From contig OY762069.1 in NCBI GenBank assembly GCA_963665095.1, positions 384,001 to 448,000 on the forward strand: 64,000 bases of DNA, given 5' to 3'. The stretch comes from an uncultured Desulfobacter sp. Its GTDB lineage: Bacteria; Desulfobacterota; Desulfobacteria; Desulfobacterales; Desulfobacteraceae. Below are positions 11,213 to 27,152 of this stretch, in pieces; position 1 is the first letter of the stretch, and each line of letters starts with the position of its first letter. The translations under genes were made by a program, and so were the position numbers. The notes under the pieces were generated by a model. The model was not told where the DNA came from. It ran no database searches and worked only from the letters and a program-made list of their open reading frames with translations.

Positions 11213-11338
11213 GTGTTTGGAGGAGAAGTTGCCCATATGCAAGGCGCAAGGGAACTTGCAACCGGAGCGTACTTCAGTACGCGAGGATTGTAAGTTCCCG
11301 CAGCAACACCGCAGATGGGTGACTTTTCCTCCAAACAC
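11213..11338. repeat. ~126-bp palindromic repeat, copy 2 (inverted relative to copy 1)
   Basis: TIR GTGTTTGGAGGAGAAGTTGCCCAT/ATGGGTGACTTTTCCTCCAAACAC; shares CCGGAGCGTACTTCAGTACG with the reverse complement of copy 1. Confidence 0.9.
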
Positions 11339-14300
11339 TAGTTTAGTTTTTTTATTATGGCGTCCACTGCTTTTTCTGCCGTGGCCCCGAACAGGGTGTC
11401 AATATCCACAAGATTAAGATACTTATCATCCCAGGTGACATTCGTGCTTTCAAGAATCCAGTCCTTAAGGCGGGTATATTTACCGCCCAGTGCTTTGATC
11501 TTCTTCAGCAGCGAGACATCTTCGGAGGATTTAAACCCGATGTTCAAAGAAAGCAGAAATTCAATGCTGTTGGGTGTCGCCGGATTGGTGGAGAGTACCG
11601 GGATCACAAGGATATTCCGGTTGTCTTTCCGACCTTTGCCGATATAGACGTTTCCCTCTCTGACAATGATATTCTTGGTGCCTTTGAGCCGGTGGTCTGT
11701 CTCCACACGGGAACTTTCATTGGCAAGATTTCCGGTTTTTGATAGTACCTCAATCCGGGTGTCGGAAGTAACGCCGCCTAACAGGCTCAACCCGGAAATC
11801 CGGTAGAATACCGCTCCTTTTATTTCACAGACTATTTCCTGCAGGTTCTTAACAACTATAACATTGTTGTGAGTAAGCTGGGCAAGCTGGATGTCGTGTT
11901 CGGCCATGGAATCAAATAGAATGCCCTCAAAGCTTTCACTGATCCGGCTGGTGCCCACGGTAACTGTCTTGGCCTGATGTTTAATGGCATCCACGGGCCG
12001 GGCCATGTTGTTGATGGCCTGGTTCATGGAAGTAAAGAAGGCTGACAGCATATTGGCAGGTGTCCCTTTGACCCCGAAATCAATCTCAAAATCTGATACA
12101 GGCAGCCGGCCGGACAGATATTTGAGCAGCAGGGTGATGTTGGCAATGGCGTTGAGGCCTAACGCACCAGGGAATCCGTCCTCACGACGCTTTTCTGAGA
12201 ACTGGTTGTAGAAGCCTGCCACGCTTTCCCTGAATTTGTCTTCCAGGAGCACCTCGTAATCGTCATGGCCAATGCCTTTGAAGTCATCAATAATTCCCTG
12301 AAACTTCATTTTTGCGTCATACAGAAATTTGGAGCTGCTGTTTATGGCCAAAGCGGCATAATACCCCCAGATATGGCCCACCAGGGTGTTGAGGATAGGA
12401 GCAAAATGTTCCGGAATCTGAGGGATTTTAAACACGGCTCTGGCGTAGATGTCGAACCGGTCTTCCCCTTCTGTGGTGATGACAATGGGGCATGCTTTAT
12501 GGGCATGAAAGATCGCTGTATCTTTGATAATATCCCCTAATACACTTTCCCGGGTGCCGGCGGCACACACAATAATCAGCGGTTCACTTGACAGGTCAAT
12601 ATGTTTTTTGTCTTCCACAAAATCTGAAGAGATGGTCTTATAGCACAGTTCAGATAACTTGATCCGGATCTCATCGGCGGATGTTTTATTAAAACCCGAG
12701 CCCACTGTGGCCCAGTAGTTTTTGGTGACTGCCAGCTGGCTTGCACATGCTTTGATCTGTTCGCGTATGTCAAGAACGGCTGTCATTTTTGCCGGCAGGT
12801 CCATGAGGCAGCGGATCTGATCGGAGATGTACTCTTGGGTTCTGGCATTGAGCAGGGCAGCAAGATGCAGCCCTAATACAGCGCCTGCCGTGATCTGGGA
12901 GTAAAACGCCTTGGTGGAGGCAACGGACATCTCAATGTCTCTGCCGGAACTGGTGTACAATACCCCGTCCACCTTGAATGTGAGATCAGAGTCCCTGCGG
13001 TTGACAATGGCTATGGTTTTAGCGCCGCATGCCTTAATCATATCCACGGTGCGGTTGGTATCTGTGGTGGTTCCGGACTGGCTGATGGCAACCACTAATG
13101 TATCTTCCATGGCCGAGCAGTTGTCGCCCTCGGCACGAATACTGAACCCGGAGAGTTCCGATGCTTTCTGAGCACGGATATCCATGGCTTTTTCCCCGAG
13201 ATAATGGCGCAGGATATCTGCACATCCCTGGGCTGCGATTCCGGCTGTTCCCTGGCCGATGAAATAGATTTTTTTGATCTTCCCTGATCTTAAATTCTGT
13301 TCCAGCGTAAGGGGAATAATTGTCTGGTTCAGGCTTACGTTGAACAGGCCAGAACCAGGATTTTGTTTAAATTTATTTTCCAGGGTTTTTTCAACCGAAA
13401 GCGGAGATTCTGAGATCTCCTTAAGGAAATAGTGGTTGAACCCCTGGCGGTCGATATCCCGGGAGGTAATCTGGCTGGTCAGGACATCATCCTGAGTGAT
13501 CGTAATCGGCTGGCTGTCGTAATAAAAGGAGCGTATGCCTTCAACGCCTCCGGAACCGTTCTGGTCCAGGATGACAATCTGGCCCTGGTCTTCCCCGTTG
13601 AGTTTGATATAGCTCCGGGTCTCCTCCACCACACCGTAAAGTTCTGAAGCCGCAATATAGTGGTCCTTGGCAATACCCACAAAAATAGCCTGCCCACTGC
13701 CTTTCTGGGCCAGGAACAATTTGCCCGGGGCAAGATCCGTATGCATGGAAATGGCATGGGAACCCTGGAATTCATTAACTGCCAGGCGGAAAGCCTCTTC
13801 AATGGGAGCCCCTGATTTCAGATGATGCTCCACCTGGAGTGGAATCAGCTTGGTGTCTGTGGTGATCTGGGGGTGAATTTTATCATACCGGGCTTCATAC
13901 TCGGTTTTAAGCTCCAGGTAATTGTCGATATCCCCGTTCAGGCAAACATGGATAATCCCGTTAGGGGTGGCTTTTGTATCTGTGGGCGCATTATCCACCG
14001 GGTGGCAGTTGGCTTCCGTGATATCACCCACCGATGCCCAGCGGGTGTGGGCGGAGACGGAAGATGCTGTTAAAGTAAATTTTGCCAGGGTCTGGAGCAG
14101 GGAATCGTTTTTGATCTGTTCTCTGATAAAGGAGACATTATCACCCAGTGCCCCGACTTCAGCCGCAAATTTGTATACAAAACTGATGGTAACGCAGTCC
14201 GGTGCGGAACCGGAACTGCTGGTCTTATTAACGGAGATGGTGTTATTGGTCAGAATCTGACGATTGGTTCTTTCTTCCAGATCCTGGGCCAGTCCTTGTT

Positions 14301-15054
14301 TTTCAAGCTGTGCCCGATAATCAGAAAATTCGCTGGCCTCCAGGGTACACAACACCGAGATCCCGGCAGAATCCCTGCCCCTGACTTCAAGGCGGTCAAT
14401 ACTGTTGAGTACAGCATTGATCCGCTTAAACAGAATGAGGCCCCAGGGTGTTTTTTCCTTGTCCAGCCAAGGCGCCAGATTCTCTATAATTCCGATATTT
14501 TCAAGCACCTCTTTTTTCAGACACCAGAGGATATCTTTTACCAGTTCAATATGATCGGAGGCAATTTCCACCTCAGGCGTGGCCAGGCTGGAAGTAGCTG
14601 TTTTAAAGTCCCGGGTTTCCTGAGAGATGATGTTTTCAATATCTTCTGTTATCCGGGCAAGCTTGCGTGTTTTTTCTCTGTTGTAATAGAGGGAAGAAAA
14701 CACAGACTCCTGCTTTAGGTTCTGGGCATGATCAAACAGATCAGACAATAATTGTTTTCCACCCAGGTAATCGTCAGTCACCACCTGCCATCTCTGGTTG
14801 GTAAAGGGACCAAGACGGTTCTGGGCCAGTTTTTCAATGCCTAAGGAAAGGGCCTGAAGGTCGTCTTCGCAGGCCGGCCCCTTGAATGCCACCAGAGCAC
14901 AGATCCCGCAGCCCAGAGTACAGCCTGTATCCGGGAATAAAACAAGGGTATCAGGTTTTGCTGCTGAAAGTGGGATACCAAAATTCACATGGATCTGTCC
15001 CATGCGTTTCATGTGGGTTAGAATGCGTGCGGCGATATTTTTTTGGCCTCTCAT
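11338..15054 (-). CDS. glmS: large GlmS-like glutamine:fructose-6-phosphate amidotransferase (1238 aa)
   Basis: CGI, RLEVRGRDSAG, HTRWA, NCHP, LNGDIDN, SQSGTTTDT, VASTKAF, AKTVTV. Confidence 0.85.
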   Translation of the reverse strand: MRGQKNIAARILTHMKRMGQIHVNFGIPLSAAKPDTLVLFPDTGCTLGCGICALVAFKGPACEDDLQALSLGIEKLAQNRLGPFTNQRWQVVTDDYLGGKQLLSDLFDHAQNLKQESVFSSLYYNREKTRKLARITEDIENIISQETRDFKTATSSLATPEVEIASDHIELVKDILWCLKKEVLENIGIIENLAPWLDKEKTPWGLILFKRINAVLNSIDRLEVRGRDSAGISVLCTLEASEFSDYRAQLEKQGLAQDLEERTNRQILTNNTISVNKTSSSGSAPDCVTISFVYKFAAEVGALGDNVSFIREQIKNDSLLQTLAKFTLTASSVSAHTRWASVGDITEANCHPVDNAPTDTKATPNGIIHVCLNGDIDNYLELKTEYEARYDKIHPQITTDTKLIPLQVEHHLKSGAPIEEAFRLAVNEFQGSHAISMHTDLAPGKLFLAQKGSGQAIFVGIAKDHYIAASELYGVVEETRSYIKLNGEDQGQIVILDQNGSGGVEGIRSFYYDSQPITITQDDVLTSQITSRDIDRQGFNHYFLKEISESPLSVEKTLENKFKQNPGSGLFNVSLNQTIIPLTLEQNLRSGKIKKIYFIGQGTAGIAAQGCADILRHYLGEKAMDIRAQKASELSGFSIRAEGDNCSAMEDTLVVAISQSGTTTDTNRTVDMIKACGAKTIAIVNRRDSDLTFKVDGVLYTSSGRDIEMSVASTKAFYSQITAGAVLGLHLAALLNARTQEYISDQIRCLMDLPAKMTAVLDIREQIKACASQLAVTKNYWATVGSGFNKTSADEIRIKLSELCYKTISSDFVEDKKHIDLSSEPLIIVCAAGTRESVLGDIIKDTAIFHAHKACPIVITTEGEDRFDIYARAVFKIPQIPEHFAPILNTLVGHIWGYYAALAINSSSKFLYDAKMKFQGIIDDFKGIGHDDYEVLLEDKFRESVAGFYNQFSEKRREDGFPGALGLNAIANITLLLKYLSGRLPVSDFEIDFGVKGTPANMLSAFFTSMNQAINNMARPVDAIKHQAKTVTVGTSRISESFEGILFDSMAEHDIQLAQLTHNNVIVVKNLQEIVCEIKGAVFYRISGLSLLGGVTSDTRIEVLSKTGNLANESSRVETDHRLKGTKNIIVREGNVYIGKGRKDNRNILVIPVLSTNPATPNSIEFLLSLNIGFKSSEDVSLLKKIKALGGKYTRLKDWILESTNVTWDDKYLNLVDIDTLFGATAEKAVDAIIKKLN

Positions 15055-23612: not shown

Positions 23613-25889
23613 ATGTTTGCCTCTGTCATTGATTCCATCGGCAATACCCCCCTTGTAAAAATCCAGACGATCAATCCGGAACCCGGTGTCACCATCCTGG
23701 CCAAACTTGAGTATATGAATCCGGGCGGTTCGATTAAAGACCGTGCGGCATTGTATATGATCAAGCAGGCGGAAGCCGATGGTGAGCTGACGCCGGAAAA
23801 AACCGTTATTGAAGCCACCTCCGGCAATACCGGTATCGGTCTTGCCCTGATCTGTGCGGTCAAGGGATATAAGCTGGCCCTGGCCATGGCGGAAAACGCC
23901 AGTGAAGAGCGTAAGAAAATTCTTAAGGCCCGGGGGGCAAAGATCATCCTCACCCCCAGACACCTGGGTTCGGACGGGGCCATTGAAGAGGCCTACCGGC
24001 TTGCCAGGGAATACCCGGATAAATATTTCCTACCGGATCAGTACAATAACCCGGCCAACTGGAAAGCCCACTACCATACCACCGGCCCTGAGATCATGGC
24101 CCAGACCGAAGGGAATGTGGATGCCGTGGTGGCCACTGTGGGTACTTCAGGCACGCTGATGGGGCTTTGCCGATATTTTAAGGACCAGGGACATCATGCC
24201 CGGGTGATCTGTGCCGAGCCATATCTCGGGCACGGTATTCAGGGCCTTAAAAATATGAAGGAATCCTATACCCCGGAAATTTTTGATAAAAGCCTTCTGG
24301 GTGACAGTGTTCACATAGATGATGCCACAGCCTTTGAAACCGCACGGCTTTTGGCCAAAAAAGAGGGCCTGTTTGTGGGCATGAGTTCCGGCGCTGCCAT
24401 GGCAGTGGCCCTTGACCAGGCCAAGCGTCTTCAAAAAGGCATCATTGTGGTTATTTTTCCCGATTCTGGTGAGCGGTATCTTTCCACAGACCTTTTCAGC
24501 GTAAAAAAGACCGTGAACCTGAATGTCTACAATTCGTTGTCCCAGAAAAAAGAGGCGTTTACGCCCAAGGGGGACAAGGATGTGGGTATCTATACCTGCG
24601 GGCCCACAGTTCACCGGCGGCTTGATATCGGCCATTTCCGGCGCCATGCGTTTACGGATCTGTTGATTCGAAGTCTTGAGTACCAGGATGTAAAGGTCAA
24701 ACATATTGTCAATATCACGGACTATGACGATAAGACCATTGACGGGGCAAGGGAGGCAGGTATCAGTCCCGGGGCCTTTACCCAGCCCTTCATCGACGCG
24801 TTCCTGGCAGATCTGGCACGGCTTGGCATGCGTCCCGCCCAGGCCTATGCCAAAGTATCTGATCATTTTACTGAAATGACCGATCTTACAAGAACGCTTC
24901 TGGCCAGGGGTCATGCCTATGAAAAGCTGCATTCGGTTTATTTTGACCTGGCAAGTTTAAGTGATTACGGCCGGCTCTCCCGGGTGGATGTCAATAAGAT
25001 CCGCATCGGAGCCACAGTGGATCTGGATGAATATGAAAAACAGAACCCAAGGGATTTTACCCTGCTCAAACGGGTAAAGCTGTCCGAGCTGAAACAGGGG
25101 GTGGGCATTAAGACGGAGTGGGGAAATGTGCGGCCCTCCCTTCACCTGCAGTGCGCTGCCATTGCTACGGCGTTTCTGGGTGCGCAGTTTGATATCCACA
25201 CCGGTTCCAGGGAGCTGATGTTTCCCCACCATGAGAACGAGATTGCCATTGCCAGAGCTGCAGGCGGCTCCTTTGCCAGGGTGTGGATGCACTGTGCGCC
25301 GGTGTATTATGACGGGTCTCTGGATGCAGAAACCCTTGAGGATTTAACCCTTGACCGTATGGCTCAGATGGGTTGGGATGAGAAAACCATCCGCTTCTGG
25401 CTCTTGTCCGCCCATTACAGAAAAACACTGATCCTGTCAAAAAAGAGCCTGGATGATGCCGGAACTGTACTTGCCCGGATCAACCGGTGTATAGAGTCCC
25501 TTGATGCGGCATCCGGACACTCCAGTGAAGAGGATATTCAGCAGATTACCTATGATATCCGCCAGGGTATGGTGTCGGCCATGGCAGATGATTTGAAAGT
25601 GCCGGTTCTGGTATCAGGCCTTTTATCCTGTGTAAAGCGGATCAACCGCCTGATCAGTGCAGGGGACCTTGGGCCGGCAGGTGCCGGGCGTCTGCGTGAC
25701 TGCTTCAGGGATGTGGATACAGTGCTCAATGTGTTTGATTTCAGTCAAAAGAAAGCGTATTCCGATCAGGCTGCTGCACTCATTGCCCAGCGGGAAGCGG
25801 CCCGGCAGAAAAAAGATTTTGAGACAGCGGACAGAATCCGGAAACAGCTGGATGAGATGGGCATTCCGGTTCATGATAAAAAGGTGTGA
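23613..25889 (+). CDS. fusion of cysteine synthase (CysK/CysM) and a cysteinyl-tRNA-synthetase-like domain
   Basis: aa 1-~297: IGNTPL, NPGGSIKDR, EATSGNTGIGLA, FPDSGERYLST; aa ~300-758: YTCGPTV, VNITD.DDK, FPHHENE, anticodon-type C-terminus. Confidence 0.92.
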   Translation: MFASVIDSIGNTPLVKIQTINPEPGVTILAKLEYMNPGGSIKDRAALYMIKQAEADGELTPEKTVIEATSGNTGIGLALICAVKGYKLALAMAENASEERKKILKARGAKIILTPRHLGSDGAIEEAYRLAREYPDKYFLPDQYNNPANWKAHYHTTGPEIMAQTEGNVDAVVATVGTSGTLMGLCRYFKDQGHHARVICAEPYLGHGIQGLKNMKESYTPEIFDKSLLGDSVHIDDATAFETARLLAKKEGLFVGMSSGAAMAVALDQAKRLQKGIIVVIFPDSGERYLSTDLFSVKKTVNLNVYNSLSQKKEAFTPKGDKDVGIYTCGPTVHRRLDIGHFRRHAFTDLLIRSLEYQDVKVKHIVNITDYDDKTIDGAREAGISPGAFTQPFIDAFLADLARLGMRPAQAYAKVSDHFTEMTDLTRTLLARGHAYEKLHSVYFDLASLSDYGRLSRVDVNKIRIGATVDLDEYEKQNPRDFTLLKRVKLSELKQGVGIKTEWGNVRPSLHLQCAAIATAFLGAQFDIHTGSRELMFPHHENEIAIARAAGGSFARVWMHCAPVYYDGSLDAETLEDLTLDRMAQMGWDEKTIRFWLLSAHYRKTLILSKKSLDDAGTVLARINRCIESLDAASGHSSEEDIQQITYDIRQGMVSAMADDLKVPVLVSGLLSCVKRINRLISAGDLGPAGAGRLRDCFRDVDTVLNVFDFSQKKAYSDQAAALIAQREAARQKKDFETADRIRKQLDEMGIPVHDKKV

Positions 25890-25895
25890 GTTGAT

Positions 25896-26849
25896 ATGAA
25901 TAATTTATATTTTTTCCCGTTTACATTTATAAATGACCGTCAGGCACAGGCAATGACCCTGTTTTTTGACCGCTTCAGTATTCTGGATATTCATCCGGGA
26001 GCGCCTTTGCCCGGCCCCATGGCCAGCCTTGAGAATCAGGGCATTTTGTCGCGGGTGCCTGTGGACCAGGATAAGCTTTCTGTTGCAGAATTAAAGGCGC
26101 GTGACTGGCTGGACTGGGCCGCTGTAAACCGGGGCAATGAAAAAAATTTACGGGCCATGATTCGTGAGACGGCTTTTTTGACGGATGACAGTGGTGTAGC
26201 GGCCATCAAGTCCGGCATCCGTAAAGGGATTGGGGGAAGCGGCCAGAATTTTGCATCCGGGCCCACAGTGGAGCCGCCACTTGTCTTTTTAAAACTTGCG
26301 GACATCTACGATCGTGAGCATCAGGAGATTCAAAACGCCCTGGATGCCCTGGACGCTGAAAATGCTGCCCTTTTTGCCGAATTAAAAGGTGAAGCCGTTC
26401 TTGCGGCTCCCGACAGGGTTCCGGGAGATGATGATCCCGGTCGTGCCATGACGCTGAAAAGAATTCAGGCCTGGTGGTCGGTTGCCTTTGATGCAGGGCT
26501 TTTGAACCCTGATGCAACCCCGGTCTTGGTCACTGCCAGCCGTGCGGTTATGGATGAATTTTGTGCCAGTGCCGGCAAGGCGATAAATACGCTTGACATT
26601 GAATCCATAAAAGTGCATCACAATGATTGCGAGCTGACAGAACAGCGGCATCTGGAGATAAACAGAATCCTTGAGCAGATGGCAAAAGGAGTGGCCGTTG
26701 ATCCGGAAAAGGCACGTCTGGACAGTGTTGGTAACACCCCGGTCACCGGTCGGATTCAGCTTCGTTTTTTTTCCGGAGATAATGTAGCCCTAAAAGAAAA
26801 AAATCCAGGCGGACAGGTTGGTGTATGCCTGGTAGAATTAAACTCATAA
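25896..26849 (+). CDS. hypothetical protein
   Basis: 317-aa ORF 6 bp downstream of the cysK-cysS fusion; no recognisable motif. Confidence 0.75.
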   Translation: MNNLYFFPFTFINDRQAQAMTLFFDRFSILDIHPGAPLPGPMASLENQGILSRVPVDQDKLSVAELKARDWLDWAAVNRGNEKNLRAMIRETAFLTDDSGVAAIKSGIRKGIGGSGQNFASGPTVEPPLVFLKLADIYDREHQEIQNALDALDAENAALFAELKGEAVLAAPDRVPGDDDPGRAMTLKRIQAWWSVAFDAGLLNPDATPVLVTASRAVMDEFCASAGKAINTLDIESIKVHHNDCELTEQRHLEINRILEQMAKGVAVDPEKARLDSVGNTPVTGRIQLRFFSGDNVALKEKNPGGQVGVCLVELNS

Positions 26850-26963: not shown

Positions 26964-27152
26964 ATGGCATTTACCCCAGTAGTTGATCAGTCCAAATGTG
27001 TAGGTTGCGAAGAGTGCGTTGATGTTTGCCCCGCAGAAGTATTTGAAATGGAAGACGGCAAATCCAACCCCGTTAATGCTGAAGAATGCATGGGCTGCGA
27101 AAGCTGTGTAGAAGTTTGTGAAGAAGACGCCATCACAATAGAAGAAGACTAA
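26964..27152 (+). CDS. 2[4Fe-4S] ferredoxin
   Basis: CVGCEECVDVCP and CMGCESCVEVC; strong AAGGAGG RBS. Confidence 0.96.
   Translation: MAFTPVVDQSKCVGCEECVDVCPAEVFEMEDGKSNPVNAEECMGCESCVEVCEEDAITIEED

Follow-up and report, generated by a model that had tools for sequence, protein, structure and literature searches.

The window analysed here, 64,000 nucleotides from an uncultured Desulfobacter sp., carries on its plus strand (23613..25889) a single unbroken open reading frame of 758 amino acids, in which a CysM-type PLP sulfhydrylase is joined to a module resembling cysteinyl-tRNA synthetase (CysRS). Pfam recognizes PALP (residues 7-284), tRNA-synt_1e (317-616) and CysS_C (717-757). The protein passes the cysKM profile TIGR01136 (358, cut-off 344) and falls short of the cysS profile TIGR00435 (303.6, cut-off 340), which other members of the family pass. 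An AlphaFold model (pLDDT 86) is confident inside the domains and matches both parent folds, the module reaching a TM-score of 0.81 to 1U0B (over target); the linker has a pLDDT below 50, and the model gives no confident arrangement of the two halves (pTM 0.63). The proposal of the first-pass annotation, an intact PLP cysteine synthase with SIKDR and a full-length CysRS fold in one frame, is thus borne out. Contigs from three public runs of three studies, one of which may be the source of the window itself, run through the gene free of indels and joints, and its closest named homologs are from Desulfobacter (81-83% identity).

The synthase domain (residues 1-296; 23613..24500, plus strand) is intact, with the PLP lysine K42 (23736-23738) in SIKDR (from 23730), a TSGNT loop and GTSGT. 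Among 96 fusions, S[IVT]KDR is found in 94, TSGNT in 91 and the loop motif QGLK[NS] in 94. Three residues, E125, Y128 and R132 (23985..24008), lie on one helix of the model (116-133) and are present in 96, 96 and 94 of the 96 fusions, as opposed to none of nine free enzymes; we presume that this helix belongs to the sub-domain that closes over the active site. The substrate loop GHxIQGLKNM, which includes K213 (24225..24275), is short and aligns with CysM without gaps; the long GIGAG loop of CysK was not found in it, and in the PDB residues 196-240 have mycobacterial CysM (3DWG/3DKI) as their sole match. K213 aligns both with R210 of E. coli CysM and with R220 of mycobacterial CysM, the latter presumably involved in phosphate binding. 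Mycobacterial CysM uses O-phosphoserine (PMC12910592, available part), and Acetobacterium AsOPSS was assayed with the same substrate (PMC12397247, available part). These O-phosphoserine sulfhydrylases share with the fusion the PLP fold, the short loop, a basic residue at the R220 position and, in a by-eye comparison with AsOPSS based on the accessible portion of that source, the IQGLKNM loop. They differ in that the fusion carries a CysRS-like module, its loop continues as KESY rather than EEAI, and it has no adjoining sulfur-carrier gene; none was found near it, and three ThiS-like genes lie elsewhere in the genome. Since R210 is a thiosulfate contact in an O-acetylserine enzyme (PMC9547175, part seen), the loop is no more than suggestive of the substrate.

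The CysRS-like module (residues 303-756; 24519..25880, plus strand) comprises a Rossmann fold, a CP domain, a helical bundle and an anticodon domain. Zinc ligands C28, C209, H234 and E238 of E. coli CysRS (1LI5) correspond to C329, C514, H539 and E543; we take H234 and E238 to be ligands, and a literature search for a paper on the zinc-site residues found none. C329 belongs to CGPT (from 24597), in a segment (24597..24635) that also holds an eroded HIGH motif reading DIGH (from 24624): H37 is replaced by D338, and G39 and H40 are retained. The other ligands fall in PSLHLQC and FPHHENE (25134..25241; PSLH from 25134, LQC from 25146, FPHHENE from 25221), where W205 has become L510 and E208 has become Q513. 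DFTLLK starts at 25053 and WMHC at 25284. KMSKS (266-270) aligns to LDAET (570-574; 25320..25334), so that its second lysine is a glutamate, and of the persulfide-synthase lysines (KIIK, KMSK) the K73 equivalent alone remains. At the C-terminal end (25791..25877, REAAR starting at 25791), R423, R427, D436, R439 and D451 are matched by R727, R731, D740, R743 and D755. We assume that R423 and D451 read the anticodon in E. coli CysRS; R427 (which contacts G34), D436 and R439 are described as anticodon readers in the available part of PMC4536326.

The zinc/cysteine motifs and the anticodon-domain motif had been noted in the first reading of the sequence and are in place, as is KMSKS in the metG of the window. 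Loss of the ATP motifs, also claimed there, holds for DFTLLK, PSLH and the missing KMSKS, whereas DIGH keeps half of HIGH. Compared with canonical CysRS (E. coli CysS, 1LI5/1U0B; TIGR00435), the fusion has the whole fold, zinc ligands, histidines and anticodon residues in common. It differs in lacking KMSKS, in its eroded HIGH, in its changed W184 and W205 equivalents, in the attached synthase and in an insertion in the CP region (24933..25148) with the family-specific motif KRxxLxELKxG.

This pattern is a property of the family. KMSKS or KMAKS occurs in 0 of 98 distinct fusion modules and in 74 of 81 comparison rows (80 canonical CysRS and one cut fusion), and HxG[HN] in 8 of 98 compared with 80 of 81; KMSR or similar is retained in 22 of the 98. 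Even the HIGH histidine that the window copy keeps is found in just 6 of 120 close homologs and 20 of 98 wider ones. Binding residues behave differently: C329, C514, H539, R343 and H511 are conserved in all 98 modules and E543 in 91, the acceptor-end site residues (R343, H511, H529, H560, H601) in 96-98, and the anticodon residues in 96-97, one row being truncated. Within the module, conservation is highest in the CP region, where it reaches at least 95% in 33 of 72 columns, and the five anticodon residues are invariant within an otherwise variable anticodon domain. The family ranges from a near-intact member (P0124) through the ATP-less window copy to a Desulfovibrio ferrophilus member (P0219) in which the zinc ligands are gone and all five anticodon residues are retained, indicating that tRNA reading is the last thing kept.

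Is the fusion a decaying gene? It is present in 137 of the 151 genomes from the order, a few copies being broken or cut by contig ends, and in 122 of 301 genomes of the phylum, including complete 1.8 Mb genomes, the latter count having used a less eroded family member as query; as related genomes are not independent, both tallies overstate. Named carriers include Desulfobacterales, Desulfopila, Desulfocapsa, Desulfobulbus and Desulfovibrio ferrophilus. Across 11 genomes of the genus, the synthase has a dN/dS of 0.066; for the module the value is 0.089 in the core and 0.12 overall, compared with 0.047 (core) and 0.081 (whole) for cysS in the same genomes. Thus the fusion is widespread and under selection, not in decay. 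Likewise, the absence of KMSKS from every fusion module under purifying selection answers the question whether its loss is private to one strain: it is systematic among the homologues. In a FastTree phylogeny, a branch with support 100 separates the fusion modules from the canonical rows and host cysS; the tree covered 88 of 192 rows and was midpoint-rooted, so we propose neither a donor nor a sequence of events from it.

Two genomes carry two fusion copies each (G105 on C18 and C20, G077 on C38 and C44). Separately, the fusion genes L050 and L051 have a frame break within the synthase half, which may be sequencing error or real loss.

Gene content bears on the substrate of the synthase half. 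Searches of the window genome found no cysE, cysE-like gene or metX and no CysK/M other than the fusion; a serC-serA pair is present. Of the 151 genomes in the order, 118 have a cysE-like gene, in most cases together with a second cysteine synthase, so that simple provision of cysteine often does not require the fusion. In the six listed cases compared the cysE-like gene adjoins this second synthase, and the one synthase scanned scores as CysK. Of the 33 genomes without cysE, 30 keep the fusion, 25 of these having no other CysK/M match, and serC is present in every one of the 33. A free enzyme sharing the loop subtype of the fusion occurs in 7 of 14 fusion-less genomes, as opposed to 1 of 137 fusion-bearing ones. 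Among the fusion-bearing genomes, serC was not found in five, one of them an assembly of two contigs. Together, subfamily and gene content suggest that the synthase half is probably an O-phosphoserine sulfhydrylase, independent of cysE, a point that the first-pass annotation had missed. In three genomes (G040, G126, G141), no fusion, cysE-like gene or CysK/M match was found; these may be cysteine auxotrophs or assembly gaps.

Our preferred reading, to which we give a probability of roughly one half, is that of a tRNA-gated O-phosphoserine sulfhydrylase, in which an inactive synthetase would read the charge of tRNA-Cys and gate a CysE-independent route, with both binding and regulation deduced from sequence. 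Of the roles proposed in the first-pass annotation, that of a sensor would thus fit best. The PLP domain would, in all likelihood, make cysteine from O-phosphoserine supplied by SerA/SerC and from sulfide, bypassing CysE. Judged by its motifs, the module very probably cannot adenylate cysteine, leaving the charging of tRNA-Cys to canonical CysS. It probably still binds tRNA-Cys through its anticodon and acceptor-end residues, with a zinc pocket able to hold the thiol of cysteine or Cys-tRNA. Occupancy may then be relayed to the synthase, which would be active with uncharged tRNA-Cys and low in activity when cysteine or Cys-tRNA fills the pocket; we favor this last step only slightly over its negation. 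E125, Y128 and R132 are a candidate interface between the halves. A phosphoserine route free of CysE feedback would, we reason, drain the serine precursor in a sulfide-rich cell and so need a brake of its own. ATP binding is lost, residues binding tRNA-Cys and thiol are kept and the zinc site is the first of these to go, which makes tRNA-Cys the simplest ligand, while the zinc pocket would report cysteine or its charged form. Such a module would act in the manner of HisZ and of the HisRS-like domain of Gcn2, though it belongs to neither kind. The Gcn2 domain is a fused pseudo-synthetase that binds uncharged tRNA and controls the adjacent catalytic domain (PMC4335047, in the part available); Gcn2, however, is a eukaryotic kinase and general starvation sensor, whereas the fusion is a metabolic enzyme of bacteria whose conserved residues single out one tRNA.

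The module might instead sense free cysteine only, the zinc pocket inhibiting the synthase and the anticodon residues being leftovers. HisZ, the regulatory subunit of HisG, is not known to have an anticodon domain. It is a non-adenylating synthetase paralog tied to the synthesis of its own amino acid (PMC9437257, available part) and serves as a precedent, by analogy only: HisZ is a class II protein, a separate subunit and a free-histidine sensor, while the fusion is class I, covalently joined and equipped with its anticodon domain. Three zinc ligands conserved in all 98 modules would fit such a sensor, as would relaxed constraint on the anticodon domain, whose dN/dS is 0.22 in the fusion and 0.07 in true cysS. 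Yet leftovers should not remain invariant at five positions of a variable domain, nor outlast the zinc site as they do in D. ferrophilus, and we consider this explanation rather unlikely.

Alternatively, the module may offer aminoacyl-tRNA-Cys to the PLP site, where an incorrect residue, be it phosphoserine, selenocysteine or a persulfide form, would be converted or removed. In CysK/M the TSGNT loop holds a free carboxylate; it is intact in the fusions and argues against a tRNA-borne substrate, as do the free enzymes that replace the fusion and have no tRNA module. The conserved acceptor-end residues, a tRNA-Sec in the genome and the precedent of SepCysS (PMC5424206, in part) favor such catalysis. 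However, the best SepRS match in the window genome scores 31 bits against a cut-off of 381, so the SepRS/SepCysS pathway was not found there, and selD adjoins the fusion in only 1 of 24 among the loci listed. We regard tRNA-dependent catalysis as unlikely; the tRNA-linked sulfur-transfer route suggested in the first-pass annotation finds no supporting genes, and the persulfide lysine motifs of CysRS are lost. The single selD-like frame lies directly upstream of the fusion in one genome (L073:3868-4827).

A scaffold that tethers tRNA-Cys or CysS and hands on new cysteine before it is oxidized gains some credit from a Nanoarchaeota MAG protein (P0135), in which the same synthase subtype is fused to a CysRS with all catalytic motifs. 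This protein falls among canonical rows and is probably a separate, independent fusion, meaning that the pairing arose twice. But an inactive module would compete with CysS for tRNA, and cysS is unlinked to the fusion in the window genome. Channelling, another early suggestion, is weak for the window copy, whose module has no ATP motifs and so cannot use up the cysteine, and a scaffold role seems improbable to us.

Could the module still charge tRNA-Cys slowly, as a backup tied to cysteine synthesis? E. coli CysRS with K266/K269 mutations still supported cell-free translation (PMC5660078, part available), so loss of KMSK alone is no proof of inactivity, and the members retaining KMSR-like or HxG[HN] motifs point the same way. 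In the window lineage, however, the whole loop is replaced and the W205 and E208 equivalents are altered too. Furthermore, the fusion is not the sole cysS, the point on which its reading as a synthetase had been said to turn: a separate canonical gene with HIGH, PGWHIEC and KMSKS lies at C1:273850-275304 beside an ispF-like gene, and the genome has one tRNA-Cys. Canonical cysS and fusion co-occur in 10 of 10 phylum genomes tested and in 14 of 15 genus relatives, the match in the remaining one being a shorter, lower-scoring CysRS. Canonical cysS was not found in 4 of the 137 fusion-bearing genomes of the order (91-94% complete); such absences would favor a backup, yet they fit within the 6-9% missing from those assemblies, though incompleteness is unproven. 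Residual charging is accordingly very improbable. That a redundant CysRS is decaying neutrally, or that the fusion is a product of misassembly, can practically be dismissed, since the frameshifted copies in a few assemblies (G038, G095) stand against the breadth of the distribution, a module dN/dS of 0.12 and the absence of indels in three runs.

The fusion appears to be undescribed so far. A literature search, with subscription journals outside its coverage, found no description of it, nor is it mentioned in the parts of PMC8762117, PMC5424206, PMC5388404 and PMC9437257 that were available. The same order has another CysRS paralog, CysRS* of some Desulfobacterales (PMC9437257, available part). 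CysRS* and MshC, likewise a CysRS paralog, are active ATP-dependent ligases, unlike the fusion module, and CysRS*, as far as the available text goes, lacks the anticodon domain, a pattern of loss opposite to the one seen here. Databases label the fusion 'cysteine--tRNA ligase' or 'cysteine synthase', and its less eroded members pass the curated cysS cut-off; the gene so labelled is present in about 90% of the order's sampled genomes and 40% of the phylum's. Stated more broadly, a bacterial biosynthetic enzyme would be gated directly by the charge of its cognate tRNA, by way of a class I pseudo-synthetase fused to it, or would act on that tRNA's amino acid. Many sulfate reducers would make cysteine mainly or only in this way, and the family would form a living series that runs from near-intact CysRS through ATP-less to zinc-less forms; we hold this at a little under even odds. 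If true, a class I case would join the short list of synthetase-derived sensors, tRNA charging in bacteria would be tied directly to an enzyme, and cysteine synthesis in sulfate reducers without cysE would be accounted for.

Downstream of the fusion, on the plus strand, lies a gene for a 317-aa protein (25896-26849) without known family, for which we found no Pfam or NCBIfam match and no informative Atlas match. We rejected it as a dedicated partner: it occurs, mostly in single copy, in 143 of the 151 genomes, among them 11 of the 14 that lack the fusion. In fusion-less loci with this gene, tmk abuts it directly in five of the six examined, the sixth ending at a contig edge. It usually sits between tmk (or the fusion) and a ferredoxin and evolves fast, with 15-24% identity to the relatives aligned. 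The ferredoxin (26964-27152, plus strand; 62 aa) is of the 2[4Fe-4S] type by sequence, with two CxxCxxCxxxC motifs, and follows the 317-aa gene in many relatives. Outside the order, the neighbours of the fusion vary. An Rfam scan of the window gave no match, and promoter and terminator matches were at chance level. The window genome carries tRNA-Pyl and tRNA-Sec (G000:C1:900717-900790, noted with L055), and a phosphoglycerate-dehydrogenase-like match (L055; G000:C1:4263411-4264388) contains one in-frame TAG, which may reflect pyrrolysine readthrough or a broken gene. Elsewhere in the window, on the minus strand (11338-15054), a 1238-aa protein that is GlmS-like by its motifs is roughly double the normal GlmS length, owing to long additional stretches at both its N and C termini.
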